This document shows, in pieces, positions 42,418-49,517 of a DNA stretch of 64,000 nt. The stretch spans positions 1,216,001 to 1,280,000 of the forward strand of contig OY762492.1 of NCBI GenBank assembly GCA_963665845.2, in the 5' to 3' direction. Within the stretch, counting starts at the first letter, position 1, and every line of letters begins with the position of its first letter. A program made the position numbers and the translations under genes. This DNA comes from Candidatus Poribacteria bacterium. Its GTDB lineage: Bacteria; Poribacteria; WGA-4E; GCA-2687025. The notes beneath the pieces were generated by a model. That model was not told the origin of the DNA. It worked only from the letters and a program-made list of their open reading frames with translations, and searched no databases.

Positions 42418-42576
42418 CTGACCTTGAGTCTTTAGTTGGAACATTCGGCCTGGCGAACGCGGACGGTTTCTGTCGGGACTCTGGATTCCCGCTTGCGCGG
42501 GAATGACAGGGAGAGGGCGCGGGAATGACGACCTGGTTAGCATACTCTTTCCCGTCAATAGAGCGGTCATTCGTTC
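42418..42576 (-). mobile_element. Near-complete MITE copy lacking the left TIR
   Basis: CTGACCTTGAGTCTTTAGTTGGAACA plus REP-A and the reverse complement of the subterminal block. Confidence 0.75.
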
Positions 42577-46233: not shown

Positions 46234-46309
46234 TGGCGCGCCCGGCAGGAGTCGAACCTGCGGCCTAGTGATTAGAAGTCACTTGCTCTATCCGCTGAGC
46301 TACGGGCGC
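46234..46309 (-). tRNA. tRNA-Arg (anticodon TCT)
   Basis: Minus strand GCGCCCGTAGCTCAGCGGATAGAGCA-AGTGA-CTTCTAA-TCACT-AGGCCGCAGGTTCGACTCCTGCCGGGCGCG-CCA, 76 nt. Confidence 0.97.
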
Positions 46310-46380
46310 TCCTCTGATGCGCTCTTGGCGCGCTCAATTTAAAGTATAGCGGAGCGGCTTTAAAACGGCAACGTTTGGAA

Positions 46381-46548
46381 CTGACCTGACGCCTAAAGTT
46401 GGGACATTTGAACCGACCATCGCTCTATTCATGGGTTAAAGGCGTCATCAACCGGGTCGTCATTCCCGCGTAAGCGGGAATCCAGAGTCTACCCCGAAAC
46501 CGTCCGCGTTCACAACCAGAATTGTCCCAACTCTAAGGGTGTGGTCAG
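46381..46548 (+). mobile_element. Full-length MITE copy (168 bp) with 6-bp target duplication TTGGAA
   Basis: TIRs CTGACCTGACGCCTAAAGTTGGGACA and TGTCCCAACTCTAAGGGTGTGGTCAG. TTGGAA at 46375-80 and 46549-54. Confidence 0.85.
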
Positions 46549-46556
46549 TTGGAAAA

Positions 46557-46641
46557 CTGACCTTACGTCTATAGTCGGGACATGGCGGCGGGCGAACGCG
46601 GACGGTTTCTGCGGCGCCTCTAGATTCCCGCTTACGCGGGA
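46557..46641 (-). mobile_element. MITE copy whose REP hairpin is interrupted by IS110 (resumes at 48188-48200)
   Basis: TIR CTGACCTTACGTCTATAGTCGGGACA...GATTCCCGCTTACGCGGGA, continuing as AATGACGACCTGG at 48188, as in the uninterrupted copy at 42521-42536. Confidence 0.85.
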
Positions 46642-46759
46642 GTATCTGTGTTCAAAGTCAACCATATCTCGTTCTCCGTAGTCCAGAAAGTCGCCGCGGC
46701 GGATCTTTTTCGGCAGTACCGAAGGAGCCGCCGCAGCTGTCTCTCGGAAAGGGTTTTCA

Positions 46760-47958
46760 TCAGCCTTGCGTCCTGTCGCTTGACTGCGGATCGGAAGACG
46801 CCGCCGCCGGCGCTTCTCCAGGCGCCGGCAGCGCCTCCCCGTCAGCCTCATCAGAAGACGCCGCCGCAGACGTTTCGGTCTGACCCGCGACCGACGCATC
46901 GGAAGACCCCGACTCTTCCGATGGCGCCTCAGCCTCAGTGTCATCCTGCTCATCAGAAGACGCCGACTCTTCCGACGAAGCCAACGAATGCAGCTCATCC
47001 AAAGGAACCCAAGGCGTCTCCCGCTTCAGAATCGCGTTCGCAAGAACCGCCAGCTTCCGCATGACCGCCACAAGAGCCGCCTTCCCAGGCTTGCCGTTCT
47101 CCTTCAGACGCTCGTAAAACACCTTCATGTCCGGGTTGAAACGAATCGCCGACATCGCCGACATATACAGAAGCGCCCGAATATCGCTCCGACCGCCCCA
47201 AATGCGGCGCCGACCTGTCGACTTGCCGCTCTCGTGCGCCCAAGGAGCCAAACCAAGCAGGGAACAGATCTGACGGCCGCTCCGCTCGCCCAACTCCGGC
47301 ACAAAAGAACCAGATATGCGGAAATGAGATCGCCGAAGCCCGGAATGCTCTTCAACAGACGGAACCTCTTGTAAAGATCAGGCTTTTCCTTGATCAACGC
47401 CAGAGCTTCCCGCTCCGCCGCCTTGCGCTCCTCTTTCAGAGTGTCGCGCAGCTTTTTGGTCGCAGCCTCCGTCGGCTCGCCTTCCAGTAGATGCAGCCGA
47501 TTGGTCAACTGGGTGGTCATTTTCACCAGCTGCCTGTCCATCGTCATCCAGCAGCGAGCGTCTTTCACGATCGGATCGATCGGCGTTGTCGATTCCAGAT
47601 CGCGGCTCAGCCCATACAGCGCGAGCATCTTGGCGTTCAGCGCGTCGGTCTTGGCGCGGACGCTGTAGGAGCGGATGAAGTTATGGGCAAAGTTTGGATG
47701 GCAGCGGCGGTAAGGGATCTCTGCTTCGGCGAGCAGCGACGCCAGTTTCCGCTCGTATCCGCCGGTCGGTTCAAAGACGACCATGTTGATGTTGGGGTGG
47801 GTCGTCAGGAGGCGTTTGATGAACCGCTTGATGGGGCTCGCGGCGTTTTTAATGGTGGAGGTTTCCCCGCCGTTGATGGAGATTTCAAGCGTGTCTTTGG
47901 ACGCGTCGATTCCGGCGACGATTTTGTTGCTGTTTGTCTTGGTCTGAGTTAGACTCAT
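46760..47958 (-). pseudogene. IS110 recombinase/transposase, frameshifted near 47303-47310 and DEDD->DEDN
   Basis: RuvC-like GIDASK / FEPTGGYE / KTDALNA in one frame. Tnp domain GLAPWAHESGK..GGR..LYM..MRKL in the -1 frame. AGGAG RBS before ATG 47958. Confidence 0.85.
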
Positions 47959-47984
47959 GCTCGTTCTCCTTTCTGGAGAAAAAG

Positions 47985-48175
47985 GACGAGAAGGACCGGC
48001 CTCCCTACTTGTATTCTGCACGAATGCACAACATCTGTCCGGAGCCGCCGGTTCTTCTTGTCTTCTTTGCGCGGCTCTCGATACTCCCGCACGGCGCCGC
48101 TGCGAAGCAACGCGCCCAAGACGGTCTGGAGTCTCACCGCGCTGCCCCTTAAGTATGCGCTTACTCTAGGGGCAA
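47985..48175 (-). ncRNA. Predicted IS110 bridge RNA
   Basis: 5' hairpin (48143-48174), target-binding loop (~48068-48141) and donor-binding loop (~47995-48052), with guides matching target and donor. Confidence 0.8.
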
Positions 48176-48284
48176 TGTCATCATACAAATGACGACCTGG
48201 CTTGCGACGCTCGCTGTTGCAATATCCCGCGCCTCTGCGTATCATGCGTTTCAACATTAAAAGCAACAGCGCGATGGGACGACA

Positions 48285-49517
48285 ATGCCGACTAAAGACC
48301 AGATCCAAGCCCGCTACAACCTGCTCATCGAAGACCTGATGGAGCGCGGCGTTGATGTGAACGACGTTCGACAACGGCTCCAAAACCAGCGCATCGAAAC
48401 GCCCTCATGGGGGTACGGCGATTCGGGTACGCGCTTTGGCGTTTTTCAACAAGAATGGGCGGCGCGCGACACCCAAGAGCGCCTGCAAGACGCCGCCGTC
48501 ACGCATCAGCACACCGGGGTCGCGCCCTCGGTCGCGCTCCATATTCCGTGGGACAAGGTGGACGACTGGGCGGCGCTGAAACAGTACGCCGACGAGCTCG
48601 GCGTCGAAGTGGGAGCCATCAACCCGAACCTGTTCCAAGAGCCGGACTATATGCTCGGAAGCGTCTGCCATCCTGACGCCGAGGTGCGCCAAATGTCCAT
48701 CGACCATCTCCTAGAATGCGCGGAGATCATGCGCATCACAGGCTCCGACATCATGAGCGTCTGGCTCGCCGACGGCACCAACTACCCAGGACAGGACGAT
48801 TTCCGCGAACGAAAGCGGCGGCTGCTGGAATGCCTGCAAGCGGGCTACGACGCGATGCCGAACGACGCGCGCATGCTGGTGGAGTACAAATTCTTTGAAC
48901 CCGCCTTTTACCACACCGACCTGCCCGACTGGGGAACCTCGCTGGTCGTCTGTCAAAATCTGGGCGACCGGGCGCAGGTACTGATCGACACGGGGCATCA
49001 CGCGCAGGGGACGAACATCGAGTTCATCGTCGCCTACCTGCTGGATGAGGAACGGCTCGGCGGCTTCCATTTCAACTGCCGAAAATACGCCGACGACGAT
49101 CTCACCACTGGCTCCATCAACCCGCAGGAACTGTTTCTGATCTACACGGAGCTGGTCAAGGAGGAGAACGACCCGAACTCGACCGCCGACATCGCCTACA
49201 TGATCGACCAGAGCCACAACATCAAGCCGAAAATCGAGGCGATGATTCAGTCGATCATGAACATTCAGACGGCGTACGCCCGCGCGCTCATCGTTCCCTA
49301 CGGCGACCTGAAAGAGGCGCAGCGCGCCAAAGATGTGGTCGGCGCCGAGATGATCATGCAGCAGGCAAACAATACGGATGTGGAGCCGCTGCTTCAGACG
49401 CTGCGCATCGAAGCGGGGCTGGATCCGAATCCGCTGGAGGCGTTTCGGCGCAGCGGCTATCTTGAAAAAGCGGCCGCGGAACGGCGCGAGGGACCGCGCA
49501 CCGGATGGGGAGCCTAA
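48285..49517 (+). CDS. rhaI: L-rhamnose isomerase (RhaI type)
   Basis: IETPSWGYG.SGTRF, ALHIPWD, WLADGTNYPGQ, EYKFFEPAFY.TD.PDWG, YADDDL. Confidence 0.92.
   Translation: MPTKDQIQARYNLLIEDLMERGVDVNDVRQRLQNQRIETPSWGYGDSGTRFGVFQQEWAARDTQERLQDAAVTHQHTGVAPSVALHIPWDKVDDWAALKQYADELGVEVGAINPNLFQEPDYMLGSVCHPDAEVRQMSIDHLLECAEIMRITGSDIMSVWLADGTNYPGQDDFRERKRRLLECLQAGYDAMPNDARMLVEYKFFEPAFYHTDLPDWGTSLVVCQNLGDRAQVLIDTGHHAQGTNIEFIVAYLLDEERLGGFHFNCRKYADDDLTTGSINPQELFLIYTELVKEENDPNSTADIAYMIDQSHNIKPKIEAMIQSIMNIQTAYARALIVPYGDLKEAQRAKDVVGAEMIMQQANNTDVEPLLQTLRIEAGLDPNPLEAFRRSGYLEKAAAERREGPRTGWGA

Follow-up and report, generated by a model that had tools for sequence, protein, structure and literature searches.

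The locus described here lies in a 64,000-nucleotide stretch of a Candidatus Poribacteria genome (contig OY762492.1), which we refer to as the window and to which all plain coordinates refer. An IS621-type IS110 element occupies positions 46642–48188 on the minus strand. It is flanked by a tRNA gene (46237–46309) and a gene encoding an L-rhamnose-isomerase-like protein (48285–49517), which are not adjacent to one another in the sister species. An Rfam search of the window returned tRNA only. Between the tRNA gene and the element lie sequences of a MITE that carries a palindrome (REP). The first is an intact 168-bp MITE (46381–46548, plus strand) with an unbroken REP (46459–46482) and a 6-bp target duplication (46375–46380 and 46549–46554); the orthologous site in the sister species is empty, i.e., this MITE copy is absent and its 6-mer is present once. 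The second MITE is represented by its right arm (46557–46640, minus strand), comprising an inverted end (46557–46582) and the right half of a split REP (46624–46640) that includes the right target (46636–46640). The left half of the split REP is found beyond the other end of the element (48190–48201, minus strand); it includes the left target (48190–48196), with a few MITE-like bases and no left inverted end.

At the right junction (46641–46649, minus strand), the left donor half (46643–46649) adjoins a CT core (46641–46642), and this arrangement is identical in all nine full copies of the element in the host genome. At the left junction (48180–48189, minus strand), a TT core (48188–48189) adjoins the right donor half (48183–48187). 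Excising 46642–48188 restores the palindrome, as originally predicted, with one T shared such that the boundary is ambiguous by 1 bp. The sequence that had been taken as the uninterrupted copy (42518–42536) is only half a REP, lacking the second arm of the hairpin, and the proper intact comparison is the REP at 46459–46482. The claim of about a dozen REP copies in the window agrees with the 11 intact copies that we counted. The element had also been placed inside the REP hairpin of a MITE. The right side bears this out, with a split REP and a MITE right arm with its inverted end; the left side, with ~13 MITE-like bases and no inverted end, does not. An IS within an intact MITE would have both MITE ends and a matching duplication around it, and the window copy has the right arm only.

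The transposase gene (46760–47958, minus strand) encodes an IS110 transposase (PF01548 and PF02371) in two frames. In the assembly, it is broken by a frameshift near 47302 and has Asn in place of the fourth catalytic Asp (47635–47637). The Asn allele is absent from the read contigs covering that base; these contigs are collapsed across copies, so neither change is assignable to the window copy. The C-terminus is an ~80-amino-acid, acidic, low-complexity tail of Ser, Ala and Glu (46760–47000), also found in P0006–P0008 and missing from most of the aligned relatives at 40% identity. An intact paralogue, P0001, passes the NCBIfam model NF033542 with 182 bits (cut-off 140). Its D-E-D-D and Ser residues align with those of IS621 (E-value 1e-24 to PDB 8wt6), and it has the DEDD RuvC-like domain and serine-bearing Tnp domain of an IS110 bridge recombinase. 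The reading frame is unbroken in four genome copies. The window copy is probably a non-autonomous remnant, to which the four intact copies could supply recombinase in trans. A search for a named close relative returned none: plasmid matches were all below 60% identity, and the 25 listed were below 40%. Viral contigs held no related locus, and a search of genome contigs returned one distant locus.

Upstream of the transposase gene, in contrast to the downstream guide RNA of the IS1111 subgroup, is a non-coding end that is predicted to have the IS621-type organization, i.e., a 5′ hairpin followed by two looped stems, all on the minus strand. The predicted 5′ hairpin (48144–48175) has compensatory changes in eight of nine pairs. 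The predicted target-binding loop (48069–48142) holds a left target guide (48118–48125), a right target guide with core (48084–48090), and handshake bases (48082–48083); the predicted donor-binding loop (47995–48052) holds a left donor guide (48031–48038), a right donor guide with core (48008–48014), and handshake bases (48006–48007). All four guide motifs were found where they had originally been placed. The left target guide had been drawn over 48118–48129 and does lie there, but only 8 nt of it are in register. Folding models favor the three stem-loops, with a z-score of −4.66 and 1 of 200 shuffles as good. In the consensus fold of 20 homologues, which has compensatory changes in 17 of 29 pairs, the guides are open, consistent with their proposed position in loops. 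By contrast, when the sequence is folded alone, every base of the right target guide is paired, as are some bases of the other three guides; the original prediction itself had named guide matches in paired stems as counting against it.

A further comparison for the guides comes from relatives of the element. Starting from 38 metagenome loci (~33–59% identity), we left out 16 loci without a recognizable left end, one without a right end (L080), one without a left flank (L059), and four duplicates; 16 relatives remain. Among these, the predicted target guides covary with the target: the left guide matches at 104 of 128 positions, compared with 62.0 after shuffling, and the right at 71 of 80, compared with 32.8, with none of 20,000 shuffles as high for either. 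When only the nine distinct targets are considered, matches number 58 of 72 (left) and 37 of 45 (right), and 0 and 1 of 20,000 shuffles, respectively, were as high. The donor is nearly constant among the 16 relatives, and the donor guides match that donor. Thus, all four predicted guides can pair with target and donor halves, with target guides that change as targets change. The apical loop of the inner target hairpin contains a second copy of the left target guide in four relatives (L045, L050, L063 and L064). Over a set of 15 relatives, this second copy has 65 matches versus 53.7 when permuted (p = 6e-4, with kin that are not independent), and it is possible that it is a trace of how guides get rewritten.

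The host genome (G000) contains nine full IS copies, seven at ~90% and two at ~65% identity, and one internally deleted copy. A check proposed with the original prediction was whether all copies split the REP at one bond, and this proved true of all 10. The copies are mosaics of one another with reshuffled flanks, and hence are not fully independent trials. The core reads TT at all 10 left junctions and CT at all nine full right junctions, meaning that the second T is shared and the first base differs in 9/9 full copies; it also differs in 6/6 REP-hitting relatives. The core is CT/CT in all 10 non-REP relatives. The first core base has been described as less conserved (PMC11208158). In the sister species (G001), an initial result of no transposase suggested that the element was missing; it is present, with its copies collapsed at contig ends, where guides are unreadable. 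All eight left and nine right junctions in the sister species are at the same REP bond, the right junctions having been found by a pattern requiring CT. A phylum-wide 12-mer scan gave chance levels outside these two genomes.

Assembled reads give a further view of the element. One contig in each of three runs from one study crosses the left junction. One contig from an RNA run, with a depth of 4 and a possible DNA origin, covers 48080–48195, crosses the left junction, and carries a further guide allele. No end-to-end circle joint was among the 15 joints listed (five more lay beyond these), and contigs drop rare forms. Sequencing runs with small word shares were left out of habitat use. If the ends were joined, a −35 box (46656–46661, minus strand) and a −10 box (48180–48185) would be 17 bp apart and form a predicted circle promoter; 15 of the 16 relatives have an equivalent spacing of 17–18 bp.

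The target is a REP of the CGTC-1/dRS3 type, with a CGTC tag, an 8-bp stem, a 4-nt loop, a short tail and a high copy number, i.e., about 770 full copies in the host genome and 168 in the sister species. The CGTC-1 class includes the Neisseria dRS3 repeats (PMC3733652), and the palindrome is a cosmopolitan REP and no invention of the MITE. Six of the 16 relatives are also inserted in CGTC-type REPs, all with TT on the left and CT on the right. In a phylogenetic tree, from which one relative (L010) fell out, the non-REP members form a single branch (support 100/99) and the REP-hitting members are deeply diverged; the root is not fixed. Because of the six REP-hitting relatives and this deep divergence, REP targeting looks old in the group and not specific to the MITE found here.

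The MITE is 168 bp long, with 26-bp terminal inverted repeats and 6–7-bp target duplications, and is present in many copies. In the host genome, paired 26-bp ends no more than 400 bp apart define 104 elements; a REP is present in 70 of these, and an exact duplication of at least 6 bp flanks 43, compared with 0.5% expected by chance. Ten of the 65 standard 168-bp MITEs have a neighbor at ≥98% identity. A single-copy element of 1,267 bp (L090, G000:C1:561322-562588) has the ends of the MITE, encodes a DDE_Tnp_1 protein of 367 amino acids that falls below all IS4-family NCBIfam cut-offs, and holds no REP. Its shared ends suggest that this DDE transposase probably moves the MITE. A similarly spaced pair of MITE ends is found at G003:C53:1244-2508. 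A 188–190-bp variant of the MITE in the host genome has a 22-bp insert that removes the IS target, and half-MITEs flanked by 31–39-bp direct repeats occur in the sister species (L098/L110 and L099).

The IS and the MITE are associated more often than the abundance of the MITE would predict. A MITE arm adjoins 8 of 10 IS copies, compared with 199 of 768 empty REPs (p = 5e-4, about a threefold excess). The bias persists among sites that match the guide at positions 2–7, where a MITE arm is found at 7/8 IS sites and 99/241 empty sites (p = 0.010). Only 2 of the 10 copies have both MITE ends around them (p = 0.32), neither with a matching duplication; a search for matching duplications across the swapped flanks of the host-genome copies found none that was exact and one 5-of-6 pair. 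In the sister species, a MITE end is found at five of eight left and five of nine right junctions. Three exact, duplication-matched pairs that enclose MITE and IS occur among 25 combinations (0.011 expected), i.e., at three sister-species sites the IS is nested in an intact MITE with both ends and the duplication. Because MITE ends are common there (154 ends for 168 REPs), nesting is shown in the sister species and enrichment is not.

The guides themselves vary. Guide alleles differ at positions 1–2, as do REP flanks, and one copy with a guide T at position 2 occupies a site carrying that T. Position 7 of the left guide is mismatched in 9 of 10 copies, and this guide is 1 nt shorter than those of the relatives. 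In the window copy, the left guide matches its own site at five of eight positions and the MITE consensus at seven of eight. The dominant form of the guide region, which 8 of 10 copies carry, is identical to the MITE consensus across 10 contiguous bases, and the guide-matching flank is typical of the MITE, being found at 35 of 65 intact 168-bp MITEs and 24 of 569 REPs without a MITE arm. The match between the common guide allele and this MITE-typical REP flank would explain much of the MITE bias. Two unrelated relatives, L049 and L063, have the same first six guide bases, and the guide match to the MITE allele may be inherited.

The original prediction was of an element programmed against a hairpin that another mobile element spreads. 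Bridge-RNA targeting of the REP is supported, given the single bond in all 10 copies and the covariation of guides, as are a real REP-carrying MITE and real nesting (p of about 5e-4 in the host genome, and three units in the sister species). The role of the MITE is not supported in the form proposed: only about a quarter of REPs (199/768) have a MITE arm, just two copies are bounded by both MITE ends, and REPs of this type are also targeted by six distant relatives. From sequence comparison, what the element is programmed to hit is a widespread REP, and it favors the allele borne by the MITE. It had also been proposed that the MITE provides a self-replenishing set of "safe" landing sites, which is overstated given that the window site is a synteny breakpoint with only a MITE right arm and a broken transposase. 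In the sister species, a WD40-like gene comes immediately after the tRNA gene that lies beside the window element; in the host genome, the WD40-like gene is ~515 kb away, adjoining another IS copy with a truncated MITE left arm. Judged by gene order, the window site is a rearrangement breakpoint, and the window right arm and the distant left arm may be halves of one original MITE. Either the recombinase or ordinary homologous recombination may have produced the rearrangement.

Three other explanations of the association bear on how the bias is read. The element might be a plain REP-targeting IS110 whose link to the MITE is incidental, arising from later recombination between repeats or from better survival in harmless places. 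REP flanks are visibly shuffled across the host genome (97 REP sites have both MITE arms and 102 have one), six of the eight MITE-linked IS copies have only one MITE arm, and the window site is itself a breakpoint. However, shuffling alone would not raise the share of MITE-linked sites from 26% to 80%, the bias remains among guide-matched sites, and duplication-flanked units of MITE and IS exist in the sister species; we consider this explanation possible but rather unlikely. The opposite view is that the element has adapted to the MITE, with a guide rewritten from a MITE-borne REP and a spread of the MITE that sustains the IS. The dominant guide region matches the MITE even at two bases upstream of the guide that differ in other alleles, over half of intact MITEs but few other REPs carry the guide-matching allele, and at four of five sister-species IS sites that map to the host genome, the host genome lacks a MITE end. 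Nevertheless, roughly three-quarters of REPs have no MITE arm, leaving hundreds of non-MITE sites free; other guide alleles match non-MITE flanks; the REP-hitting relatives are distant and deeply diverged; and the two-base extension has a roughly 1 in 10 chance of matching. We therefore regard such adaptation as unlikely.

A reading of a different kind is that target choice depends mainly on the protein, which would recognize the REP hairpin itself (a structural gate), and less on RNA pairing. A full hairpin is present at all IS sites with an intact right flank, although the 3′ arm is missing from 188 of 821 sites that match the core. In addition, the match of the left guide is imperfect, and a stem-loop requirement has been reported for ISPpu10 (10.64898/2026.03.19.712850). 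Set against this, nine hairpin sites out of nine is a weak departure from a background of 77%, and relatives whose guides differ are inserted at unrelated sequences to which those guides correspond; we consider this reading very unlikely. Associations between REP loop variants and the left or right flanks did not pinpoint a crossover. Left and right REP flanks from at least three repeat families occur in mixed combinations in the host genome.

We consider it likely that the element is an IS621-type IS110 whose predicted bridge RNA steers the recombinase to a CGTC-1 REP, most often a MITE-borne one, through the following cycle. The element ends would join into a circle, creating the promoter with 17-bp spacing. 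The donor loop would read the joined ends, and the target loop would read both REP halves. By analogy with IS621, top-strand cleavage would take place after the shared T and be followed by strand exchange (PMC11208158). Before exchange, the right target guide would wobble-pair with the TT core of the target; after exchange, it would pair fully, over 11 nt in this copy, with the CT core of the donor and the bases upstream, and this better pairing would drive insertion. The fixed sequence would be that of the top strand, so that left junctions all read TT and right junctions all read CT. The MITE, probably moved by the single DDE transposase with the same ends, would meanwhile add new landing sites. 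Top-strand insertion has been reported for CazIS110 (10.1101/2025.10.25.684509), and the junctions described here agree. For IS621, top-strand retention is already implied at positions 6–7; here, it reaches the first core base. Durrant et al. altered the core jointly in donor and target (PMC11208160), and matching cores are a filter in published design rules (10.1101/2025.05.14.653916). The TT/CT pair found here in nature suggests that the first core base need not match between donor and target, and it marks the strand that is fixed after insertion.

The element resembles IS621 from E. coli and IS622/ISCro4 (PMC11208160, PMC11208158) in its DEDD and serine domains and REP target, in its upstream non-coding end with a predicted 5′ hairpin, target loop, donor loop and handshake bases, and in having a predicted promoter across joined ends. 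It differs in its distant protein, CGTC-type REP, TT target versus CT donor core, ~80-amino-acid acidic tail and bias toward MITE-borne sites. ISPpu9, ISPpu10, ISPa11 and ISRm19 (PMC1525189) are likewise IS110/IS1111 elements with all copies at one REP position, and RNA-only copies occur elsewhere in the genome of the ISPpu9 host; these elements use different REP families, and no carrier MITE is described in the accessible parts of the source. An IS110-family transposase of the Neisseria phages Nf1/MDA acts at dRS3 (PMC7058167, PMC1797815), a target of the ATTCCC-N8-GGGAAT class with hundreds of copies, and has been proposed to drive repeat-anchored recombination. Unlike the element described here, which cuts the left stem arm, that enzyme is phage-borne, and the CT motif lies in the central 8 bases of the Nf1 subtype. 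IS4321/IS5075, at Tn21 ends, and ISKpn4/ISPst6, at attC sites, are RNA-guided and target another mobile system (PMC11187229), but are of the IS1111 type with a downstream RNA; here, the REP is only sometimes carried by a MITE. The CGTC-1 REP family shares the CGTC tag, 8-bp stem, 4-nt loop and short tail, and the study describing it detected no transposase associated with CGTC repeats (PMC3733652); here, some are in a MITE with a candidate DDE partner.

Thus, REP targeting by IS110 elements, targeting of sites in other mobile elements, and an IS110 enzyme at dRS3 are all known. A search of the openly available literature, at listing level for most hits, returned no report of an IS110 element that favors CGTC REPs borne by a MITE, nor of a TT/CT core pair occurring in nature. 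The new features are the apparent three-layer nesting, the natural core mismatch (target TT, donor CT), a putative orphan bridge RNA and excision-like scars. More broadly, an RNA-guided element can keep a supply of targets by using a cosmopolitan palindrome with hundreds of copies that are partly renewed by another mobile element. Specificity is directly testable in this system, which offers about 770 mapped targets, four intact copies and several guide alleles.

The orphan bridge-RNA-like sequence (L041, G000:C1:2788107-2788330) lacks both a transposase and the ends of the element. At positions 2–8, its left guide agrees with the REP, and the inner target hairpin has been lost. That this RNA is conserved is unsupported, since it was found in none of seven family genomes. 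A more elaborate, three-tier arrangement can be envisaged, in which a DDE transposase spreads a REP-carrying MITE, the IS110 guide was copied from the MITE allele, and the TT/CT-core recombinase, possibly with the orphan RNA in trans, also acts on REP and IS junctions by recombination, and thereby shuffles repeat arms and rearranges the chromosome. We consider this quite unlikely; if true, it would represent an RNA-guided version of the recombinase acting on specific repeats that has long been proposed for dRS3 arrays.

Several sequences resemble products of side reactions. The internally deleted IS copy ends at an internal donor-like CT, and the same joint is present in read contigs. Three REPs in the sister species (L097, L099 and L101) have an identical 12-bp left-end remnant ending at a donor-like CT, reflecting either independent events or spread by the MITE. 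The deleted copy and the 12-bp remnants are likely traces of side reactions, and similar products with imperfect boundaries have been described (10.64898/2026.08.31.748434; 10.64898/2026.08.14.744561). A possible isolated left junction of 6 bp, which may be due to chance, is found near position 523376 of G000:C1, and an isolated right junction with about 10 bp of the element is found near 3739046 (L042). Lastly, two REPs in MITE arms, near positions 630784 and 2683231 of G000:C1, have the last four bases of the donor in place of the normal five, and resemble a bottom-strand excision product that is one base short.
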